DNA from: Fimbriimonadales bacterium
Lineage (GTDB): Bacteria; Armatimonadota; Fimbriimonadia; Fimbriimonadales; JABRVX01
DNA length: 64,000 bases
Assembly (NCBI GenBank): GCA_045862955.1
Contig: BTVI01000002.1
Location: 90,090 to 154,089, forward strand
Reading direction: 5' to 3'
Shown: positions 4,429-48,155 of the stretch, piece by piece
Layout of the letters: each line of letters starts with the position of its first letter
How positions within the stretch are numbered: the stretch's first letter is position 1
Made by a program: the position numbers and the translations under genes
The notes under the pieces: generated by a model
What the model saw: the letters and a program-made list of their open reading frames with translations, nothing else
Told to the model about the DNA's origin: nothing
Database searches by the model: none

Positions 4429-5334
4429 GTGAGCAAGGCTTTTCTCTTCCCCGGTCAAGGTTCCCAGGTTCCCGGCATGGGCCGCAACATCCGCGAGGCT
4501 TCATCGGCCGCGCGCGAGGCCTTCGAGCGCGTGAGCGAGGCGGTTGGAAGCGACGTGGCCGCCCTCTGTAACGAAAGCGATCCGGAGACGCTCCGCCGCA
4601 CCGAGAACGCCCAGATTGCGCTCTATACCTGTGGCGTAGCGACGGCCGCAGCGCTGAACGAGAAGGGACTCGTGCCTGCGTTCACTCTCGGCCACAGCGT
4701 CGGCGAGTACGCTGCACTAGCGGCTGCAGGCGTCATCTCGCTAGAAGACGGCGCTCGCCTCGTCGCTCGCCGCGGCGAGCTAATGTCCCAAGCAGAGAAC
4801 GGCGGAATGGCTGCGATCATCGGACTGGACGATGCACAAGTGGAAGCGGCTTGCTCCGGTGTTTCGGAAGGCATCGTGGTGGTCGCCAACTACAACTCGC
4901 CCGGCCAGGTCGTGATCTCCGGAGAGCCGGCTGCGGTGGCGGCGGCGTGCGCGAACGCCACGGCGGCAGGGGCGCGACGGGTGGTCCCGCTGAACGTCTC
5001 GGGTGCATTCCACTCGCCGCTGATGCAGGAAGCTGCGGCCCACATGCGCTCGGCTCTGGCGAGCGTTTCGTTCTCCACGGGCACCGCCCGGGTGGCGTCC
5101 AACGTCCTGGGCGATTTCGTGACAGACGCAGCCGCCTGGCCCGATCTCCTCGCGAGGCAGATAGCGTCGCCTGTTCGCTGGACAGACTGCATTCGGGCGG
5201 CGGTGCGCGAAGGCGCTACGGAGTTCTTCGAGTGTGGGCCAGGCAACGTGTTGTGTGGTCTGCTGCGGCGCATTGCGCCCGAGGCCGAGTGCACCGGCGT
5301 GGGGGACGCAGAGGCTTTGGCAGGACTTTCTTAG
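4429..5334 (+). CDS. fabD: malonyl-CoA:ACP transacylase
   Basis: FLFPGQGSQ, GHSVGEY, ANYNSPGQVVISG, VSGAFHS, SPVRW, ECGPG. Confidence 0.95.
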   Translation: MSKAFLFPGQGSQVPGMGRNIREASSAAREAFERVSEAVGSDVAALCNESDPETLRRTENAQIALYTCGVATAAALNEKGLVPAFTLGHSVGEYAALAAAGVISLEDGARLVARRGELMSQAENGGMAAIIGLDDAQVEAACSGVSEGIVVVANYNSPGQVVISGEPAAVAAACANATAAGARRVVPLNVSGAFHSPLMQEAAAHMRSALASVSFSTGTARVASNVLGDFVTDAAAWPDLLARQIASPVRWTDCIRAAVREGATEFFECGPGNVLCGLLRRIAPEAECTGVGDAEALAGLS

Positions 5335-5356
5335 TGGCGCAGGTAGACTTTCCCGC

Positions 5357-6550
5357 ATGGATTTCGCCCTAACGAACGAGCACAAGCTGATTCAGGAGAG
5401 TGCCCGCCGCTTCGCCGAAACCGAAGTGCTGCCCGGCCTGAAAGAACGAGACCGGGAGGGAAGGCCCGACCCCAACCTGCTCAAGAAGATGGGCGAAGCG
5501 GGGCTGCTCGGCGTGTGCATTCCCGCCAAGTACGGGGGGCAGGATGCGGACTATGTCAGCCTCGGCCTCGTGTGCGAAGAACTGGAGCGAGCCGATAGCA
5601 CCGCGCGCGTGATCATGTCCGTGCACGTCGGGTTGAACAGCCTGGCGCTGCTGCAGTGGGGAACGGAGGAACAGAAGCAGCGATTCCTGGTGCCACAGGC
5701 GAAGGGTGAGAAGTTCGCCGGCTTCGGACTGACAGAGCCCAACGCCGGCTCTGACGTGGTGGGCATCCGAAGCACCGCGGTGCGCGATGGTGACACGTAT
5801 GTGTTGAACGGCGAGAAGACGTGGATCAGCCTGGCCGACCTGGCGGACCACTTCCTGGTAGTGGCCTACACGGATCGTGCGAAGAAGTCGCGTGGGATGA
5901 CGGCGTTCGTAGTGGAGCGGGGCATGCCCGGCTTCACCACCCAGCCGATCCATGGCAAGCTGGGTGTGCGCGCCGGCGACACGGGAACTCTAGTCATGCA
6001 AGACGTTCGCGTGCCGGCCGCGAACCGCATCGGCGAGGAGGGTGAGGGGTTCAAGATTGCGATGTCGGCGCTCGACAACGGACGCTACACGGTGGCGAGC
6101 GGAGCGGTAGGGATCATCGTCGCGTGCTTGGATGCGTGCGTGCCGTATTGCCGCGACAGGAAGACGGGTGGGCAGGAGATCGGCAAGCACCAACTCGTCC
6201 AGCAGATGGTAGCGCGCATGGCAGCATCGCGCGACATCGGAAGACTGTTGTACTACCGGTGTGGGTGGATGAAGAACCAGGGCATGCGTTGCACGCGCGA
6301 GGTGAGCATGGCGAAGTGGATCAACTGCGATAACGCATTCGCTGCAGCCAACGACGCGGTGCAGATCCATGGTGCCTACGGATATAGCGATGAGTTCCCC
6401 GTGGAGCGTTACCTGAGGAACAGCCGGGGAGCGGTGATCTATGAAGGCACACGCGAGATCCACACTCTGATGCAGGCGGAGTATGAACTCGGCTACCGCC
6501 ACGATCGCCCTCTTCGCTGCGAACTTCCCGGCTGGCCGTTCGAGGGCTGA
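5357..6550 (+). CDS. acyl-CoA dehydrogenase
   Basis: FGLTEPNAGSD, LNGEKTWIS, QIHGAYGYSDEFPVER, IYEGTREI. Confidence 0.95.
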   Translation: MDFALTNEHKLIQESARRFAETEVLPGLKERDREGRPDPNLLKKMGEAGLLGVCIPAKYGGQDADYVSLGLVCEELERADSTARVIMSVHVGLNSLALLQWGTEEQKQRFLVPQAKGEKFAGFGLTEPNAGSDVVGIRSTAVRDGDTYVLNGEKTWISLADLADHFLVVAYTDRAKKSRGMTAFVVERGMPGFTTQPIHGKLGVRAGDTGTLVMQDVRVPAANRIGEEGEGFKIAMSALDNGRYTVASGAVGIIVACLDACVPYCRDRKTGGQEIGKHQLVQQMVARMAASRDIGRLLYYRCGWMKNQGMRCTREVSMAKWINCDNAFAAANDAVQIHGAYGYSDEFPVERYLRNSRGAVIYEGTREIHTLMQAEYELGYRHDRPLRCELPGWPFEG

Positions 6551-6589: not shown

Positions 6590-7120
6590 CGTTCGATCCC
6601 CCCACCCGCGCTCGGGTGGAGAGCGTCTGTCTGTCGGCATTGCCTCCATCCGAGGGCGGATGGAGGAACACATGCCGCGGCTCAGCATCCTCACAGGCCG
6701 TAGCCTTCATCCTAGGGTGGAGGGAGGAACGGATGCCGCGGCCCAGCATCCTCACAGGCCGTAGCCTTCATCCTAGGGCGGAGGGAGGAACGGATGCCGC
6801 GGCCCAGCATCGTCACAGGCGCTAGCCTTCATCCGAGGGTGGAGGGAGGTATGGCTTGGGCCAGCGTAGAGCGGTAACAAGGCACATAGCACCAAACCGT
6901 CATGCTGAGCCTGTCGAAGCATGACGGCGGGTACCGCGAACCTCACTTTGCACACTGCTACCATGCGGCTCGTGGTGTCATGCTTCGACAGGCTCAGCAT
7001 GACGTTGCTTGCGGGGTTGCCAAGGGCGAGGGCCGCATGCCTCGACGGGCTCGGCATGACGGTGCTTGGGGGGTTGCCGAAGGATAAGCCCACATGCCTC
7101 CTCAGGCTCAGCATGACGGC
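6590..7120. repeat. REP-like cluster: 4 type-B hairpins at 61-bp period (6642, 6703, 6764, 6825) followed by 4 type-C repeats
   Basis: gcct(c/t)catcc(g/t)aggg(c/t)gga(t/g)ggagg x4; gtcatgctgagcctgtcgaagcatgac (~6899) and inverse copies at ~6977, ~7035 and ~7092. Confidence 0.85.
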
Positions 7121-15685: not shown

Positions 15686-17242
15686 CTAGTCGAGCACCTG
15701 GCGCACCGAATCGATCACGGTTCCATCCACCCACTTGATCGCAGCGACGACTTTCTCACCGAGCTTCGGCCGCGCCGGAGGCCCGCCGCAGATGGCATCC
15801 ACCTCTCGCTTGATGTCCTCCAGGGGTCGGATCGGAAGCGATGAGCACTTGACTGCGTCTATCAGATCCTGCCGCAGCGGATTGATGGCGATGCCCCGTT
15901 CGGTGACGATAACATCGATCAGCTCCCCAGGCCCACACAGCGTAGTCACTTCGTCCAGGATGACGGGGATGCGGTCACGGAAGGACGGAATAGGTAGCAT
16001 GGTGCACTTGGCAAAGAGGCAGTTCTGCCACCCACCTATTCCGTGCAGCAGTCGTCCGTCCGAGTGCGTAACGACGTTAGCGTTGAAGTTCAAGTCCACC
16101 TCGGTCGCACCCAGCACCGTTACGTCCACCATCGAGGCGAAGTTGCCCTTGCCGTGGTAGTTGTAACTCGTAAACGGGCTAGTGTTCACGTGGCGTGGGT
16201 TGTCCCTCATGGAGCGGACTCCGTCCAGATCGAACGTCTGCCCGTCCAGGATATATTCGACCAAACCCTCTTCGAGCATCTGCACGAGGTACTTGTTGCT
16301 GCCCCCTCGCGCGAACCTCGCCTTGATCCCCTTCTTCCTCATCATCTCGCCGAGGAAGATGGAGAAGGAGAGGGCAGTCCCGCCCGCGCCAGCCTGGAAC
16401 GAGAACCCGTCGCGCACGATGCCTACCTCTTCGCAGAACCGCGCAGCCAACTCTGCTATTAGTAGCCGATCGGGACTGCGCGTGATCTGCGTCGTGCCGG
16501 AAACGATCTTCGCCGGCTCGCCGATGCGATCCATCACAACCACATAGTCCACGTAGTTGCCATGGATCTGCCACGGGATACAAGGAAACGGAACTAGGTT
16601 ATCGGTGACCACGATGACCTTATCTGCATACTGACTGTCCGCGAGTGCGAAACCTAGTAGACCACACGCCGAAGGTCCCGTCACGCCGTTTGCGTTGCCG
16701 AAGGGGTCCGCAGTCGGAGCCGCAATCACTGCTATATCGATATGAACCTCGCCATCCTGCACCGCTTGATAGCGGCCCCCATGCGACCGCAGCACTCCCA
16801 GTCCCCGCATCTTTCCCCGAGAGCAGTACTCTCCCAGCGGCCCATTGAGGCTGCCCTCGATGTGGTGGATCACACCCGATTCCATGTGGTCCACCATGCG
16901 CGCGTGGCAGGGGAACGATGCGCTGGGGAACCACATGAGGTCCTTCGCACCCAGCTCGGCAGCCGCGTCGAATACCGCGCAGGCCACCATGTCACCGTCC
17001 CGAAAGTGGTGGTGGGTGGAGATAGTCATCCCGTCGCGCAACCCACACGCCTGCAGCGCCTCGTGCAGCGAGCCGACCACCTTGTTGCCGTCGGCGGGGT
17101 AGTCGGCGCAACTAGCAATGGGCGGTGCAGCCTTGCGACCCGATGGGCGATACTTACCCACTCCTTGGTAGGGAATGGCCTCTCTGCCGTTCACTTCGGT
17201 CGGAACCCATCGGCCTATCGCGTTTTGCACCAGCTCACTCAT
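15686..17242 (-). CDS. citF: citrate lyase alpha subunit (acyl-ACP/CoA transferase)-like
   Basis: GMTISTHHHFRDGD, RSHGGR, FSFQAGAGG, LGATEVDLNFNANV, VIVTERGIAINP. Confidence 0.92.
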   Translation of the reverse strand: MSELVQNAIGRWVPTEVNGREAIPYQGVGKYRPSGRKAAPPIASCADYPADGNKVVGSLHEALQACGLRDGMTISTHHHFRDGDMVACAVFDAAAELGAKDLMWFPSASFPCHARMVDHMESGVIHHIEGSLNGPLGEYCSRGKMRGLGVLRSHGGRYQAVQDGEVHIDIAVIAAPTADPFGNANGVTGPSACGLLGFALADSQYADKVIVVTDNLVPFPCIPWQIHGNYVDYVVVMDRIGEPAKIVSGTTQITRSPDRLLIAELAARFCEEVGIVRDGFSFQAGAGGTALSFSIFLGEMMRKKGIKARFARGGSNKYLVQMLEEGLVEYILDGQTFDLDGVRSMRDNPRHVNTSPFTSYNYHGKGNFASMVDVTVLGATEVDLNFNANVVTHSDGRLLHGIGGWQNCLFAKCTMLPIPSFRDRIPVILDEVTTLCGPGELIDVIVTERGIAINPLRQDLIDAVKCSSLPIRPLEDIKREVDAICGGPPARPKLGEKVVAAIKWVDGTVIDSVRQVLD

Positions 17243-18440
17243 TGGCAGTCTCTCTCCAGTTCTCAGGTATCAAGCCGCACGCTACGGCCAATTTCACGGT
17301 GCGGAGCGCACGCTTGACGACGGGAGGATCGATCATCTTGCTGCCCAGCGCTACGACACCTAGACCCTTCGCCGTAGCATCTTCATACGCTGTTACGATT
17401 CGCTTGGCCCTCTCGACAGCCTCCGGCGACGGGGCGAACTCCTCGTGAATGGGACGTATCTGGCGTGGGTGGATACAGCCCTTGCCTTCGAAGCCGAGAG
17501 CTTTCGCTTCGCGCACGCTGGCCCGCAGACCTGCCTCATCGTCGATGTCGGAAAACACCGTGTCGATCGGCTGGATGCCTGCGGCTCTCGCTGCGTTTAA
17601 GACCTGGGAGCGCGCCCAAAAGCTTTCGCGACCTTCGGCGGTACGTTCCGCACCTATGTCTGCCGTATAGTCCTCCAAGCCGATGGCCAAGGCACACACG
17701 GAGCGGCATGCCGACGCGATCTCGTAGGCACGGAAAGCGCCCAGTGCGCTCTCGATGATAGGCATTAGATAGGTATCGGAGGCGCCGGACTCGCGCATCG
17801 CTTCGTCCACTTCGCGCACCTGCTCTGCGCTCTCGCACTTCGGGATCAGCACGACATGCACGTTGTGCGGGGCGATCACCCGGATGTCTTCCAGGCCGAG
17901 TGGCAGCTGATTGATACGTACCATTCGCTCGCCACTGCCAAAATCCACCTGCCGGAGTGCGTTGCGAACCAGGAGACGTGCGGAGTCCTTCTCGGTGGGG
18001 GCCACGCTGTCTTCCAGGTCTAAGATATAGCCGTCTGCGCCGTGGAGGCCGGCGTTCGTGAAGAACTTCGGCTCCCCGCCAGGCAGGTACAGCCGCGAGC
18101 GTCGGAACCGCTCCTTCTCAGTAGGGACTTGCGTACACGGTAGAGCCTCCGGCAGCCAAGTGTTCGTATTCAGTGGGTCCGCGCGCTTGACCGCGGCTTC
18201 CAACCGAGCAGCTATCACGTAAGGTAGCGCACCGTAATCTTGCATGGTCACCTTCGCGTGGTGCACTCCCAGCTCGCCCAGCACGTCGCGGACGAAAGAG
18301 CGGATGGAGTCTCCGTACATCGACTCGACGCGGGTCGTCACATCCACTTCGAGCGGCCCACCATCACGCAGCTCGATGGACACCCAACAATCCGATCGTA
18401 CGCGGTCGCCTTGACGCCCAGCAGTGCCAGTCCCACTCAT
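17235..18440 (-). CDS. citE: fused CitD-like ACP + CitE-like (HpcH/HpaI) lyase beta subunit
   Basis: N-terminal ~90 aa resemble CitD (YGDSIR..V..VL...DYGALPYVIAARLEAA); then RRSRLYLPG, ILDLEDSV, IESALG, GLEDY, GFEGKGCIHPRQI, MIDPP. Confidence 0.9.
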   Translation of the reverse strand: MSGTGTAGRQGDRVRSDCWVSIELRDGGPLEVDVTTRVESMYGDSIRSFVRDVLGELGVHHAKVTMQDYGALPYVIAARLEAAVKRADPLNTNTWLPEALPCTQVPTEKERFRRSRLYLPGGEPKFFTNAGLHGADGYILDLEDSVAPTEKDSARLLVRNALRQVDFGSGERMVRINQLPLGLEDIRVIAPHNVHVVLIPKCESAEQVREVDEAMRESGASDTYLMPIIESALGAFRAYEIASACRSVCALAIGLEDYTADIGAERTAEGRESFWARSQVLNAARAAGIQPIDTVFSDIDDEAGLRASVREAKALGFEGKGCIHPRQIRPIHEEFAPSPEAVERAKRIVTAYEDATAKGLGVVALGSKMIDPPVVKRALRTVKLAVACGLIPENWRETANE

Positions 18441-18931
18441 GCCATGCCCCTCTCGCGCTCGAGCTTCTGTAGCGTGTAGTTGAGCAGGCCCCCTGCATCA
18501 CGTATTGCGAGCATCTCGTCCGGCAGTCCTGGGAACCGGTAACTCGATTCGCCGACCGTGATCACGCCCTCGCGCGCATCAATCTCTACCTTGTCACCTT
18601 CGCGATAGGCATAGACCGCCTCAGAGCATTCTACTAACAGCAGGCCCTGATTGAGGGCGGCACGGTAGAAGATGCGTGAGAAGCTACCTGCTACCACCGC
18701 CTGAATGCCAACGGCGCGCAGACCTATCACGGGTTGCTCACGCGAGCTGCCACATCCGAAGTTCTTACCAGCCATGATGATGTCACCCTCGCGCACCCCT
18801 TCGGCGAACTCCGGGTCGAGATCCTCTAGCAAGTGCGGACGGATTTCGTCTGGCGTAGCACATGTGTAGGTGTACTTGCCGGGAAACAGCAGATCGGTAT
18901 TGATGTCGTCTCCGTACTTCCACACCCTCAT
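18437..18931 (-). CDS. LeuD/HacB/DmdB-type hydro-lyase small subunit
   Basis: GDDINTDLLFP, AGKNFGCGSSRE, SFSRIFYR, GGLL. Confidence 0.93.
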   Translation of the reverse strand: MRVWKYGDDINTDLLFPGKYTYTCATPDEIRPHLLEDLDPEFAEGVREGDIIMAGKNFGCGSSREQPVIGLRAVGIQAVVAGSFSRIFYRAALNQGLLLVECSEAVYAYREGDKVEIDAREGVITVGESSYRFPGLPDEMLAIRDAGGLLNYTLQKLERERGMA

Positions 18932-20187
18932 GCCTCATACTCCTCGCGGGGGTCGGTGATCCTGCCATGGATCGCGCTGGCTGCGACCGTAGCAGGACTC
19001 GCCAGATAGATGTCGGCCTCCACGCATCCCATACGGCCCCGGAAGTTCCGGTTGGCGGTGCTGATGCACGCCTCGCCCGGTGCCAGCACTCCCTGGTGAG
19101 CCCCCATGCAAGGACCGCAGCCCGATGGCAAGATCAGCGAACCAGCTGCGCTCAACACTGCGATGGTGCCGTCGGCCAGCGCCTCGTCCAGCACCTTCTT
19201 ACTTGCGGGCACGGTAAGCATGCGGCAGTCGGGCGAGATCCTCCGGCCCTTCAGGATTCGCGCGGCCTCGTGCAGGTCGCTGAGCCGCCCATTGGTGCAT
19301 GTGCCGAGAAAGGCCTGATGGATCGCGACGTCTCCCAGCTCGGCAGCAGGGCGCACGTTGTCCACCCGATGCGGGATTGCCACCAGGGGGACCAGCGAAT
19401 CCAGGTCGAACGAGTACTCTGCCACGTACTTGGCGTCTGCGTCCGCCCATAGCGGCTCGCCCGTTGCGCGATGGCCGCTCATATACTCGAGGGCGATCTC
19501 GTCCACTGGGAATGCAGCGTTCTTCGCACCCATCTCCACAGCCATGTTACAAATCGCGATGCGGTCGTCCATGGTGAGTCCATCTACCGCACCGTGAAAC
19601 TCGACCGAGCAGTAGTTGGCACCGTCCGCACCCATCTCGCGGATGATTGCCAACATCAGGTCCTTAGCTGCCACGGGCGGGCGTAGCCTGCCGGACAGCG
19701 TGATCTTGATGGAGTGAGGTACCCGCAACCATGTCTCACCCGTGAGCAAGAGGCATGCTGCCTCGGTGCGGTCGATACCCGTGCTGAATGCGCCGATGGC
19801 GCCATAAGTACAAGTATGCGAGTCCGATCCCACGATGAGCTTGCCGGGACCCGCGAGGCCCTCTTCCATCACCAGCTGATGACATATACCCATACCGACA
19901 TCGTAGAAGTGCCGGATGCCTTGCGACTTGACGAACTCCCGAACCGCCTTGTGCTGAGCGGCTGCTTTCTCGTTAGCGGCAGGAGACACATGATCGAGCA
20001 CGATGATAGGCAGCTCTGGATCGCAGACGCCGTACTTCAGCAGCTCGTTCTCCACCTTCTTGATGATCGGTGCCGTGTTGTCATGGGTGAGCAAGTGATC
20101 CGGACGAACGGTGACCACCTGGCCCGGAACCACTGCATCATGGCCAGACGCCCTAGCTAGCACTTTCTCGGCAAACGTCATTCCCAC
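18928..20187 (-). CDS. LeuC/HacA/DmdA-type [4Fe-4S] hydro-lyase large subunit
   Basis: LDH, GICHQ, GSDSHTCTYGA, GTCTNGR, GCGPCMG, STANRNFRGRMG; three cluster cysteines intact. Confidence 0.95.
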   Translation of the reverse strand: MGMTFAEKVLARASGHDAVVPGQVVTVRPDHLLTHDNTAPIIKKVENELLKYGVCDPELPIIVLDHVSPAANEKAAAQHKAVREFVKSQGIRHFYDVGMGICHQLVMEEGLAGPGKLIVGSDSHTCTYGAIGAFSTGIDRTEAACLLLTGETWLRVPHSIKITLSGRLRPPVAAKDLMLAIIREMGADGANYCSVEFHGAVDGLTMDDRIAICNMAVEMGAKNAAFPVDEIALEYMSGHRATGEPLWADADAKYVAEYSFDLDSLVPLVAIPHRVDNVRPAAELGDVAIHQAFLGTCTNGRLSDLHEAARILKGRRISPDCRMLTVPASKKVLDEALADGTIAVLSAAGSLILPSGCGPCMGAHQGVLAPGEACISTANRNFRGRMGCVEADIYLASPATVAASAIHGRITDPREEYEA

Positions 20188-20197
20188 GATACGACTC

Positions 20198-20773
20198 CTA
20201 TTCGATCAGCCTGCCCGCTTTACGGAACACGAAGGGGTCGAAGGCCGCGAAGTCCGCCTGGTGGATGAAGATAGTTTCTACTACCTGCGGACGTCCATCG
20301 CCCTCCTTGGAGTGGCAGACGATGATGTTGATGATCTCCTCGGGCAGCCCGACGACCGCCGCTAGCCATGCACCGGAAATGGGATGGCGCGCGCAGCGAC
20401 CGGTGTGGCTCATCCGATACCCGCCCTGTCCGTCTGGCTCGATCTCGAGCAGCTTGCCCACGTCGTGCACCAGTCCGCCCGCGATCAGTCGATCCATGTC
20501 CACGTGGTAGGGCATCTTGTCATAGGCTCGCCGTTGTGCCTCGGCTAAGGCAACAGCGCCCTCTGTAACCGCAATAGTGTGCTGGATGAAATTAATGCCC
20601 TCTGCATCTACCAAGAGAGTAAAGGGCATGTTGCGCACGTCCTCGATACTGTTCCAATTGCCGCGCTTGCACGCCAGCAGCCACGTGTCAACCACCTTAC
20701 GCCTCAGTTCTTCGTTTTCTATCCGCTGCAACTGGGAACGGAAGAGGTCTTCGATCTCGGTTCTGGTTATCAT
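20198..20773 (-). CDS. HD-domain protein
   Basis: H...LVHDVGKLLE...HPISG...CH...HQAD HD signature. Confidence 0.9.
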   Translation of the reverse strand: MITRTEIEDLFRSQLQRIENEELRRKVVDTWLLACKRGNWNSIEDVRNMPFTLLVDAEGINFIQHTIAVTEGAVALAEAQRRAYDKMPYHVDMDRLIAGGLVHDVGKLLEIEPDGQGGYRMSHTGRCARHPISGAWLAAVVGLPEEIINIIVCHSKEGDGRPQVVETIFIHQADFAAFDPFVFRKAGRLIE

Positions 20774-20812
20774 GTCATTGGTCCCGTCGAGTGTATTCTT
20801 GGCCGAGTGTCC

Positions 20813-21994
20813 CTACAGGTTGGCGATGATGGCATCCGTCATCTCATAGGTGCTAGCGGCTCCCTGCGCGAGCGCCTCCGGGCCGCCGCGCAGCTTCAGC
20901 ATGTCATAGGTTCGCACTTTGCCTTCCTGGACCACCGCGGCGATGGCTAACCGAATGCGAGCGGCACGCGAATCCTCCCCTATGTGATCCAGCATCATGC
21001 ACGCGCTCAGGATCATGGCTATGGGGTTCACGATAGGTGGATCGAGATGTGCGTACTTCGGTGCGGAGCCGTGAGTGGGTTCGAATACCGCCACCTCTTC
21101 TCCGAGGTTCGCACTGCACGCGAATCCCAACCCGCCGACCAGCCCCGCAAATGCATCCGACACGATGTCGCCGAAGAGGTTGCCGCAAACGATCACACCA
21201 TAGTCTTCGGGGTTCTTTGTGAGCCACATAAGCTGTGCATCGATGTTCGTGTCCCAAAGCTGGATCTCCGGAAATCCCAACGCGATTCGCTCGGCCTCCG
21301 TCATCATCATGCCGCTCGTCTCGCGCAGCACGTTCGGCTTCTCGCACACGGTGACGGACTTGTACCGGTGTTTGCGTGCATACTCGAATGCCGCAGAGAT
21401 GATACGTTGGCTCGCCTTGCGCGTAATGATGCGGCAGGAGATGGCCAGGTCCTCGCTCGGTGTGTCGGAAAATGCTTGCATCTTCGGATGAGTCTCGAGG
21501 GCTGCTCGGACGCGGTCGGGCGGGTTGGTCCACTCCACCCCGCAGTACTCGCCCTCTGTGTTCTGCCGGAACACCACGACGTCTACGTGCGGCTCTTCGA
21601 TGCCGGACACGCCTTTGCGCACGAAGTTGAGCGGGTTGCCCGGGAACGAACGACACGGACGGATGCAGATGTCCAGGTTGAAACGCTGGCGCATCGTGAC
21701 GATCGGGCTGTAATAAGTGTAGCCCTTGTCTTGCAGCTCGGGAGCCAGCTCGGCCTTCGCCGCCGCTTTCGGCTTCGAGGTGATCGCGCCAAACAGCCCG
21801 AGCTTATGCTCGGCGAGAAGCTCGATCGTCCGTTCGGGAAGTGCGTTGCCCTCCTTGCACCAGAACTCCCAGCCGATGTCGCCGTGAACGTATTCGGCCT
21901 CGAACCCCGCCGCACGAAGAACCTTGAGAGCGCAAGGCATTACTACCTTGCCGATGCCGTCCCCCGGCATCGTTACGACCGTCCGATGCGCCAT
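20813..21994 (-). CDS. isocitrate/isopropylmalate family beta-decarboxylating dehydrogenase (homoisocitrate DH-like)
   Basis: PGDGIG, SPIVTMR, RQNTEGEY, NLFGDIVSD, FEPTHGSAPKYA, NPIAMIL; strong ggaggagga RBS. Confidence 0.93.
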   Translation of the reverse strand: MAHRTVVTMPGDGIGKVVMPCALKVLRAAGFEAEYVHGDIGWEFWCKEGNALPERTIELLAEHKLGLFGAITSKPKAAAKAELAPELQDKGYTYYSPIVTMRQRFNLDICIRPCRSFPGNPLNFVRKGVSGIEEPHVDVVVFRQNTEGEYCGVEWTNPPDRVRAALETHPKMQAFSDTPSEDLAISCRIITRKASQRIISAAFEYARKHRYKSVTVCEKPNVLRETSGMMMTEAERIALGFPEIQLWDTNIDAQLMWLTKNPEDYGVIVCGNLFGDIVSDAFAGLVGGLGFACSANLGEEVAVFEPTHGSAPKYAHLDPPIVNPIAMILSACMMLDHIGEDSRAARIRLAIAAVVQEGKVRTYDMLKLRGGPEALAQGAASTYEMTDAIIANL

Positions 21995-22155
21995 CACTCC
22001 TCCTCCATCGCCGCTGCGGAGCGGTCTCGCGACGCGGAGGGGGAAAGACGCAAGAACCTGAGGCGGAGCGCCCTCGATCGTTGCTGTTCCCGGCCTCGCC
22101 GTTGAGACCCGTCAGCGTGCCGGGATTTTACCCAGTTGCAATCGTGCGAAACGAC

Positions 22156-27595: not shown

Positions 27596-28690
27596 ATCAT
27601 CTCTCCACCCCCCATGGGGTGGAGAGACGTTGACCGAAACCCGGAGACCACACGCCCGCGCACCTCCACCCCCCATGGGGTGGAGAGACGAGAAGGCGCG
27701 CCACACCACTATACGAGCAGGCGCGCCACACCACCATCTCTCCACCCCCCATGGGGTGGAGAGACGAGCAGGCATGCCACACCACAATCTCTCCACCCCC
27801 CATGGGGTGGAGAGACGAGCAGGCACGCCACACTACTATCTCTCCACCCCCCATGGGGTGGAGAGACGATCACGCACGCCACACCACTATCATCTCTCCA
27901 CCCCCCATGGGGTGGAGAGACGATCAGGCATGCCACACCACTATCATCTCTCCACCCCCCATGGGGTGGAGAGACGAGCAGGCATGCCACACCACCATCT
28001 CTCCACCCCCCATGGGGTGGAGAGACGATCAGGCACGCCACACCACTATCTCTCCACCCCCCCATGGGGTGGAGAGACGAGAAGGCACGGGAGCCTCCAT
28101 CCGAGGGCGGATGGAGGCAAGGGACTCTGAGAGCGGCGGAGGCATGCCACACCACTATCTCTCCACCCCCCCATGGGGTGGAGAGACGAGAAGGCGCGGG
28201 AGCCTCCATCCGAGGGCGGATGGAGGCATGGGTCTCGAGTGCGGATGGAGGCATGACGAGAAGGCGCGGGAGCCTCCATCCGAGGGCGGATGGAGGCATG
28301 CCACACTATCATCTCTCCACCCCCCCATGGGGTGGAGAGACGAGAAGGCACGAGAGCCTCCATCCGAGGGCGGATGGAGGCATGGGAAAGGCATCACCAC
28401 TATCTCTCCACCCCCCATGGGGTGGCGAGGCGAGAAGGCGCACGATCCTCCATCCGAGGGCGGATGGAGGCATGGGAAAGGCATCACCACCATCTCTCCA
28501 CCCCCCATGGGGTGGAGAGACGAGAAGGCGCACGAGAGCCTCCATCCGATGGCGGATGGAGGCATGGGACTCTGAGATCACCACCATCTCTCCACCCCCC
28601 ATGGGGTGGAGAGGCGAGAAGGCGCACGAGCCTCCATCCGATGGCCGATGGAGGCATGGGACTCGGAGAACGGCGGAGGCATGACGAGAC
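27596..28690. repeat. composite palindromic repeat array: 14 type-A and 7 type-B hairpins
   Basis: type A atctctccacccccc(c)atggggtggagagacga; type B gcctccatccgagggcggatggaggc; linkers are near-identical (gcaggcatgccacaccac variants). Confidence 0.92.
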
Positions 28691-47408: not shown

Positions 47409-47412
47409 CTTC

Positions 47413-47796
47413 GCACCTCCCCGTGCCGGTATTCCACACGTGGTCGGTGGCCTTCTCCAGCAGATCGCCCAGGGTACGCGTTGCTCAGGAGGAGAGTGCT
47501 TCTACCCGTCATGCTGAGCCCGTCGAAGCATGGCAGCTTCTGCCGTGAACTAGAACATGAGAACACTACCATGCAGGTTGTCATTACCTTCTTCCCCGCG
47601 CCTCCCCGTACCGGTATTTGACACGTGTTCGGTGGCTTTCTTCCGCAGATCGCCCAGGGTGCGCGTTGCTCAGGAGGAGAGTGCTTCTACCCGTCATGCT
47701 GAGCCTGTCGAAGCATGGCAGCTTCTGCCGTAACGTCGCACAGGACAACACTACCATGCGCTTTTCGATGGCATGCTTCGACAAGCTCAGCATGAC
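47413..47796. repeat. ~185-bp direct duplication, each copy carrying a type-C repeat, plus an inverted type-C copy
   Basis: gcagatcgcccagggt.cgcgttgctcaggaggagagtgcttctacccgtcatgctgagcc.gtcgaagcatggcagcttctgccgt at ~47460 and ~47646. Confidence 0.85.
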
Positions 47797-48155
47797 GGGT
47801 ATGGGCTCCTGCAACCTGGCATCTCAGCATGACGGGCATGGTCTCCTGCGACCTAGCAGCTCAGCATGACGGGTATGGGCTCCTGCAACCTGGCATCTCA
47901 GCATGACGGGTATGGTCTCATACAACCTAGCAGCTCAGCATGACGGGCATGGTCTCCTGCGACCTAGCAGCTCAGCATGACGGGTATGGTCTCCTGCGAC
48001 CTAGCAGCTCAGCATGACGGGTATGGGCTCCTGCAACCTGGCATCTCAGCATGACGGGCATGGTCTCCTACAACCTAGCAGTTCACCGTGACGGGTATGG
48101 ATTCCTGCAATCTAGCATCTCACCATAACGCAGCTAGAGACCTGCTACCTGACAG
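47786..48155. repeat. 37-bp tandem repeat, 9 copies plus 1 degenerate
   Basis: ctcagcatgacgggYatggKctcctgcRacctRgcaK units, decaying toward 48155. Confidence 0.92.

Follow-up and report, generated by a model that had tools for sequence, protein, structure and literature searches.

Citrate (pro-3S)-lyase is encoded in Escherichia coli and Klebsiella by the citCDEFXG genes; Ser14 of the E. coli carrier protein CitD is the attachment site of the prosthetic group, and CitE and CitF take CoA esters in vitro. Other described systems close to the locus analyzed here are the upper α-aminoadipate pathway of fungi (Lys20/21, Aco2, Lys4, Lys12) and Thermus (LysS, LysTU, Hicdh), the 2-methylcitrate cycle (PrpC, PrpD or AcnD plus PrpF, AcnB, PrpB), and the known sinks of 2-oxoadipate, namely, 2-oxoadipate dehydrogenase, which leads to glutaryl-CoA, and the dioxygenase HglS/YdcJ, which leads to 2-hydroxyglutarate. 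The locus is a six-gene module within a 64,000-nucleotide stretch of DNA (the window) from contig BTVI01000002.1 of a Fimbriimonadales bacterium (GCA_045862955.1; source genome G000, 97.55% complete). The original prediction for this locus held that a citrate-lyase-like pair takes the position of a condensing synthase and acts on a citrate analogue, in combination with isomerization and decarboxylation. The analysis presented here supports this view, with homocitrate favored over citrate and citramalate as the probable substrate. We propose, with a probability of roughly 0.55, that 2-oxoadipate is reductively carboxylated, isomerized to homocitrate, and cleaved via CoA esters to 2-oxoglutarate and acetate, likely as a part of lysine degradation.

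All six open reading frames (ORFs) are intact and lie on the minus strand, and their coordinates reproduce exactly the predicted layout, the first two junctions being gaps of 39 and 10 nt and the next three overlaps of 4 (ATGA), 4 (ATGA) and 8 nt. The features of the module, along with a gene that lies elsewhere in the same genome, are the following:

20813..21997, minus strand, 394 amino acids (aa): dehydrogenase of the Iso_dh family, in a clade of its own; predicted homoisocitrate dehydrogenase (HICDH)/2-oxoadipate reductive carboxylase
20198..20773, minus strand, 191 aa: stand-alone HD/HDIG-domain protein with a YhaM-type HD fold
18928..20187, minus strand, 419 aa: LeuC-like aconitase large subunit of the hacA family; predicted homoaconitate/homoisocitrate hydratase
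18437..18931, minus strand, 164 aa: LeuD-like aconitase small subunit with a PGKYTY loop
17235..18440, minus strand, 401 aa: CitD-CitE fusion, whole ORF; acyl-carrier protein (ACP; CitD) joined to HpcH/CitE
18126..18440, minus strand: CitD-like acyl-carrier domain, the N-terminal part of the fusion, with Arg at the column of E. coli Ser14 (motif RSDC)
17235..18125, minus strand: CitE-type acyl-CoA C-C lyase domain, the C-terminal part of the fusion; predicted homocitryl-CoA lyase
15686..17242, minus strand, 518 aa: CitF-type CoA/ACP transferase; predicted acyl-CoA:homocitrate CoA-transferase
Contig C6 of G000, 89039-90406 (L088:7037-8407), outside the window: PrpD/MmgE-like gene, orthologue of the protein that fills the second dehydratase slot (slot B, see below) in relatives

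In a family scan, the top NCBIfam match of the dehydrogenase was the AksF2 homoisocitrate dehydrogenase, with a score below every equivalog cut-off. The LeuC-like subunit, in which the GTCTN and GCGPC Fe-S cysteine motifs are present, scores 532, above the hacA_fam cut-off of 385.7 but below the cut-offs of LEU2 and HacA_Meth; the LeuD-like subunit passes the cut-off of LEUD_arch only. The CitD, CitE and CitF homologues all score slightly or well below the equivalog cut-offs (CitF just below, with 491.3 against 501.45), and CitF is about 66-82% identical to its counterparts in module relatives.

The survey of gene neighborhoods demonstrated that the linkage of these genes is not confined to the window. 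With the fusion as the query, at least 511 loci were confirmed; the best 80, which were used for this analysis, span WOR-3, Ignavibacteria, Phycisphaerae, Acidobacteriota, KSB1, Eisenbacteria, Aminicenantaceae, Gemmatimonadota, Chloroflexota, Eubacteriales, Cloacimonadota and other groups, and include a co-located CitF gene in 63, a LeuC-like gene in 45, the HD gene in 31 and the dehydrogenase gene in 30 cases. Among the 46 loci with at least 8.5 kb of upstream and 2 kb of downstream sequence, CitF is present in 41, an aconitase-family gene in 31, and the dehydrogenase and HD genes in 24 each. The dehydrogenase is encoded in 45 of the 50 genomes behind the 80 loci that were searched, which were picked for spread and contig size (hereinafter, related genomes). 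Conversely, with CitF as the starting point in metagenomes, the CitD-CitE fusion was detected in 72 of 80 loci, many of them on short contigs. The linkage of citDE and citF to leuCD and dehydrogenase genes, on which the original prediction depended, thus extends across many phyla, and the possibility of a chance cluster was rejected on the same grounds. No further conserved neighbor was detected in the regions around 20 dehydrogenase orthologues, and a sample of 200 other genomes from the same phylum yielded relatives of the window CitF in only 4.

By two criteria, the ACP serine and the activator genes, the module lyase is not a canonical citrate lyase. At the column of E. coli Ser14, an alignment of 143 distinct ACP domains contains no Ser at all and Arg in 128 cases; 141 domains have Ser one column further, where E. 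coli has Gly. The absence of activators from the locus, noted originally, extends to the entire source genome: profile searches that detected the controls found no members of the CitG, CitX and CitC families in G000, and the E. coli citG, citX, citC and citT sequences used as tblastn queries gave no match. Among the related genomes, citC was found in none and citG in one (citX was searched in G000 only), so that a canonical citrate lyase activated in trans was rejected as well. The simplest inference from the missing activator genes and the loss of the serine at the Ser14 column is that the lyase works with free CoA instead of an ACP-bound prosthetic group; a possible alternative is a shifted attachment site loaded by another transferase.

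The original prediction likened the YYSPIVTMR motif, which is confirmed in the window dehydrogenase, to those of HICDHs and archaeal-type enzymes rather than E. coli Icd. The likeness to HICDH stood, given that S-P-I-V replaces the S-L-N-V of E. coli Icd in all 63 module dehydrogenases, none of which has Asn115; the archaeal likeness did not, the match being to the fungal HICDH of S. pombe (3ty3, YSSPIVALR, as seen via the alignment of a relative). The catalytic columns R119, R129, R153, Y160, K230, D283, D307 and D311 are kept in 63/63 sequences. NADP-type residues are nearly invariant as well (K344, Y345 and V351 in 63/63, Y391 in 62/63), and some of these four positions are listed as NADP-binding in the accessible part of PMC8623467. 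In the solved HICDHs 3asj and 3ty3, the corresponding residues are D-I (HGSAPDIAG, NAD-type), in contrast to K-Y in all 63 module dehydrogenases. In a quick tree that included no characterized HICDH, the module dehydrogenases formed a single clade (SH-aLRT 97), apart from both the isocitrate dehydrogenases (IDHs) and LeuB; they have Ser at the column of Icd S113, where LeuB has Gly. A short-motif search of the PDB with the dehydrogenase loop was uninformative. A related dehydrogenase clade is fused to a CinA/MoCF-type domain (P0022, P0024, P0027, P0031, P0033, P0034, P0038 and P0040; 715-764 aa), and another relative, P0032, is fused to an RraA-like aldolase.

The module loci hold two dehydratase slots. 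Slot A is occupied either by a fused protein of ~660 aa or by a LeuC/LeuD pair of the window type, the two occurring together in none of 79 loci (a count that includes the window and one duplicate). Both fused proteins tested, from L008 and L218, pass the TIGR00139 homoaconitase cut-off of 529.9 with scores of 856.5 and 862.5, compared to 281.8 and 90.2 for the split subunits of the window; the PGKYTY loop is common to the window LeuD and most slot-A proteins of both types. The protein in slot B is either PrpD/MmgE-like or an aconitase of 604 aa that features an HNR(Y/H)L loop. Of the 50 related genomes, 24 encode a PrpD-like orthologue with 47% identity or more, but just 1 of the 15 genomes whose locus contains the 604-aa aconitase does so; in G044, the HD, LeuC, LeuD and PrpD genes lie in a row. 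The C6 PrpD-like protein of G000, which is 56% identical to that of L084 and distinct from a paralogue on contig C12, is likely the product of the missing seventh gene of the module. The original prediction is thereby refined, in that the module includes a second dehydratase in addition to the LeuC/LeuD-like pair. The Cahn-Ingold-Prelog assignments suggest (S)-homocitrate as the isomer that would be processed by a CitE-type lyase; aconitases are not expected to produce this isomer, and a PrpD-type enzyme fits the gap. According to the accessible portions of PMC3556520, (2S,3S)-methylcitrate requires a syn-eliminating dehydratase, a reaction that PrpD performs and aconitases cannot, and fungal homoaconitases catalyze the homoaconitate/homoisocitrate step only.

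The rest of the metabolic complement of G000 was examined as well. The HMGL-like domain was not found in this genome, so that LeuA, CimA, homocitrate synthase and Re-citrate synthase are all missing, in agreement with the predicted replacement of the condensing synthase; the domain is present in 19 of the 50 related genomes. Outside the module, G000 encodes two citrate-synthase-family proteins, an AcnA-like protein, two more IDH-clade enzymes with the S-x-N motif, and SucAB; homologues of prpB, prpC, prpD and prpE, with a prpB-prpC pair on contig C23, away from the window locus; and dapA, dapB, dapF and lysA for lysine synthesis. With these functions covered by other genes, neither the tricarboxylic acid (TCA) cycle nor the use of propionate nor the synthesis of lysine in G000 requires the module. 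LysW and LysX were not found either: the best LysX match was below the cut-off, and tblastn with LysW, LysX and homocitrate synthase queries gave no match. The module holds the sole LeuC/LeuD-like genes of G000, a separate LeuB is not present, and ilvD gave no match; the lack of both LeuA-family and ilvD matches suggests, at the level of gene content, branched-chain amino acid auxotrophy.

Taken together, the six genes and the C6 PrpD-like gene likely run the upper α-aminoadipate route backwards. The dehydrogenase would carboxylate 2-oxoadipate reductively to homoisocitrate, which LeuC/LeuD would dehydrate to cis-homoaconitate; the PrpD-like protein, or the second fused aconitase in other lineages, would then hydrate cis-homoaconitate to homocitrate, likely the (S) isomer. 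CitF would transfer CoA onto homocitrate from acetyl-CoA or another acyl-CoA, and CitE would split homocitryl-CoA into 2-oxoglutarate and acetyl-CoA, with free CoA in place of the ACP-bound prosthetic group and the CitD domain kept as a scaffold. Overall, 2-oxoadipate, likely from lysine, CO2 and NADPH would be converted to 2-oxoglutarate and acetate or acetyl-CoA; cleavage into two products is favored at cellular concentrations. Gene content, linkage, absences and motifs are direct observations, and the substrates, stereochemistry, direction and CoA use are what we infer from them.

The proposed link to lysine is suggested by gene co-occurrence. Piperideine-6-carboxylate dehydrogenase (P6C-DH) exceeds the cut-off in 30 of 51 genomes, compared to 1 of 14 controls and 16 of 201 genomes of the phylum of the window, and LAT in 23 of 51 compared to none of the 14 controls, although kinship confounds these counts. 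By raw count, 7 of 180 loci have genes for P6C-DH, LKR or SDH next to the module (P6C-DH is over the cut-off in L234, L078 and L031), and the PrpD-like gene of G049 and G039 is separated by ~8 kb from a saccharopine-pathway cluster. In G000, a gene of the saccharopine dehydrogenase family (C26:39662-40810; L148:1102-2253), with relatives in 17 of 51 genomes, may encode a lysine 6-dehydrogenase.

Several observations weigh against this scheme. The remaining 173 of the 180 loci have no lysine-catabolic neighbor, G000 itself lacks orthologues of LAT, LKR and P6C-DH (the usual aminoadipate-semialdehyde dehydrogenase; the best aldehyde dehydrogenase match is 34.5% identical), and none of the three lysine-catabolic entry genes was found in 12 of the 50 related draft genomes. 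SucAB, which G000 encodes, is a possible oxidative sink for 2-oxoadipate. NADP-IDHs work oxidatively, and the NADP signature of the module dehydrogenases is only partial, R292 being replaced by Asn in 62/63. The stereochemical argument is incomplete, given that it does not account for the 604-aa aconitase, which should yield the (R) isomer, and that PrpF was not found in 5/5 genomes with this second aconitase. The dehydrogenase is present in only 13 of the 80 metagenomic CitF loci, many of which are on short contigs. Four genomes of the same order encode a more divergent CitDE-CitF, with neither a dehydrogenase nor a PrpD orthologue, so that the lyase pair is distributed more broadly than the module. 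In the five genomes with LysW clusters (L092-L096), these clusters contain neither an aconitase nor a dehydrogenase gene in the regions fetched, and because of this, the module could supply 2-oxoadipate there. The divergent pairs of the four same-order genomes (L268-L271; G248, G147, G219 and G165) lie in a conserved neighborhood of ABC-transporter-like and hydrolase-like genes, as labeled by eye, and possibly have a different substrate.

The supply of 2-oxoadipate brings up homocitrate chemistry in the forward direction, with CitE/CitF as a non-canonical homocitrate synthase that provides 2-oxoadipate or 2-aminoadipate for lysine or another product. The enzyme set is the same as that of the upper aminoadipate pathway, and all five LysW clusters examined lack their own nearby aconitase and dehydrogenase. 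Moreover, G030 encodes LysW-LysX, with no HMGL-like or lysA match and with an IDH-like enzyme and the module dehydrogenase as its only candidates; neither lysA nor LysX exceeds the cut-off in 19 of the 50 related genomes; and the direction of the LKR/SDH homologues is ambiguous. Nevertheless, LysX over the cut-off is found in only 5 of these genomes and missing in 45, most carriers lack the LysW route, lysA is over the cut-off in 27 of the 50, and the DAP genes are present in G000. Three of the LysW clusters carry a homocitrate-synthase-like gene of their own, which the other two lack, and the aldehyde dehydrogenase linked to the module is the oxidizing P6C-DH. The module dehydrogenases have NADP-type residues, unlike the solved anabolic HICDHs, and CitF hands the thioester energy back to acetate, so that net synthesis would be near equilibrium. 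We regard the forward direction as rather improbable. An unlikely reading, too, although one with a published precedent, is an ACP-independent citrate lyase that works with its own aconitases and an NADP-IDH in citrate fermentation, glutamate breakdown or a reverse TCA cycle. Identity to the E. coli counterparts is 40% for the CitE domain and 38% for CitF, the four same-order genomes carry CitDE-CitF without the dehydrogenase, and in Ignavibacterium album, the CitD-CitE fusion and citF (IALB_1146/1147) have been read as a citrate lyase that may close the reverse TCA cycle (PMC3362086, where the accessible passages on the pair do not mention the neighboring genes and the DAP genes are noted as missing). 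Against this stand the two IDH-clade enzymes and the AcnA-like gene already present in G000, the loss of Asn115, the homoaconitase-level scores of the slot-A proteins of relatives, the redundancy of two extra dehydratases for citrate, and the failure to detect a citT homologue in G000 by tblastn.

It seems very doubtful that the substrate is a different 2-alkylmalate (e.g., citramalate, isopropylmalate or a longer homologue), with the module serving leucine or isoleucine synthesis or the breakdown of a C5-C8 acid. The module does hold the only LeuC/LeuD-like genes of G000, where no separate LeuB exists, and citramalyl-CoA and malyl-CoA lyases are among the relatives of CitE; however, ilvD has no match in G000, the dehydrogenase has Ser at the S113 column and lies outside the LeuB branch in the tree, several module genomes have a separate leu cluster, and the prp genes of G000 are separate as well. 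Leucine synthesis in particular was rejected given that neither ilvD nor LeuA has a match in G000, and so was the 2-methylcitrate cycle: 2-methylisocitrate is a tertiary alcohol that the dehydrogenase cannot oxidize, and the prp genes lie apart.

The HD gene accompanies the dehydrogenase and aconitase genes even where the lyase genes lie elsewhere. In its product, His65, Asp104, His130, His154, Glu157 and Asp174 are conserved in 26/26 aligned sequences, and the His of the HD pair is replaced by Ile in many aligned HD proteins. An alignment-based fold prediction (score 95.6) resembles the HD domain of YhaM (E 5e-5), single-sequence prediction gave a pLDDT of 44.8, and an Atlas search retrieved generic HD/YhaM clusters. 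At a guess, this is a metal-dependent repair hydrolase, e.g., for homocitrate lactone.

Module loci vary in several other respects. In Ignavibacteria (L006-L060), small genes that differ between genomes are inserted at many module junctions; by eye, these are ~120-aa four-helix-bundle-like, GxxExxY-like and toxin-antitoxin-like pairs. A tandem pair of CitF genes, ~65% and 75% to the window CitF, follows the CitD-CitE fusion in L200-L202, L205, L212, L215, L241 and L243. Between LeuD and the fusion, L049 (6629-8881) and L065 (6644-8899) contain an NADP malic-enzyme-like gene of the MaeB type, as might be expected for an oxaloacetate/malate link or for the supply of NADPH. In the window itself, the GC content of the module is 0.607 compared to 0.627 for the genome, and a promoter and terminator scan gave no signal exceeding that of shuffled sequences. 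None of the sequencing runs contained half of the region's words, and four runs yielded only short scattered contig pieces. An acyl-CoA dehydrogenase gene ~9 kb from the module (5234-6550, plus strand) has acryloyl-CoA reductase and glutaryl-CoA dehydrogenase Acd as its top matches, both below the cut-off. Intergenic tandem or interspersed repeat arrays with periods of 37-185 are located at 27713-28661, 47412-48130 and 6642-7119, and the arrays include a 51-nt unit in 7 copies with the core CCCCCCATGGGGTGGAGAG.

No published description of the module was found in a search that covered mainly open-access papers, and the accessible portions of PMC3534657 and PMC2996986 hold nothing further on it. 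Tentatively, and at somewhat short of even odds, we would describe the module as an O2-independent, CO2-fixing pathway of lysine degradation in more than 10 bacterial groups that has not been described previously, with an NADPH-dependent HICDH, a PrpD-like hydratase that makes (S)-homocitrate, and the first homocitrate lyase, evolved from citrate lyase by dropping the prosthetic group for free CoA. If the proposal is correct, Ignavibacteria, Phycisphaerae, WOR-3, KSB1, Aminicenantes, Eisenbacteria and some Bacteroidota and Chloroflexota would possess a new 2-oxoadipate sink and a new, O2-free lysine degradation route, and the module would define a homocitrate lyase and a citrate-lyase architecture free of the prosthetic group. 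The reading of such genomes would change, e.g., for the I. album pair taken as a citrate lyase in the accessible text of PMC3362086. A reversible, ATP-free link between C5 and C6 2-oxoacids together with a reductive carboxylase would be of use to adipate and CO2-fixation engineering; cultured carriers of the module exist, such as I. album and Melioribacter roseus, and five or six soluble proteins are involved.

Compared to the known systems, the module shares CitD, CitE and CitF homologues with citrate (pro-3S)-lyase but differs in the CitD-CitE fusion, in the loss of the serine at the Ser14 column in all 143 carrier domains, in that no citC, citX or citG was found, and in its gene linkage, where an HICDH-like dehydrogenase, two dehydratases and an HD protein take the place of citT and the activators. 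The HICDH-like SPIV motif and the homoaconitase-class slot-A enzyme of module relatives are shared with the upper α-aminoadipate pathway, as are, for fungi, two separate dehydratases (PMC3556520, accessible portions). Unlike that pathway, the module has a lyase/CoA-transferase pair instead of homocitrate synthase, uses a PrpD-like protein or else a distinct aconitase for the first step, and has NADP-type dehydrogenase residues; it mostly occurs without LysW, and some loci are linked to the oxidizing P6C-DH. With the 2-methylcitrate cycle it has in common a Si-type C-C step, a PrpD-family dehydratase and an aconitase, but it ends in a decarboxylating dehydrogenase rather than the PrpB lyase; the window locus encodes neither PrpB nor PrpC, the PrpD-like protein and E. 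coli PrpD share only 23% identity, a separate prp set exists in G000, and PrpF was not found in any of the five second-aconitase genomes. The proposed route would dispose of the same lysine-derived intermediate as the known 2-oxoadipate sinks but would be reductive, CO2-fixing and O2-free, and would yield 2-oxoglutarate and acetate. The parts, then, belong to known families and are apparently arranged in a new pathway.

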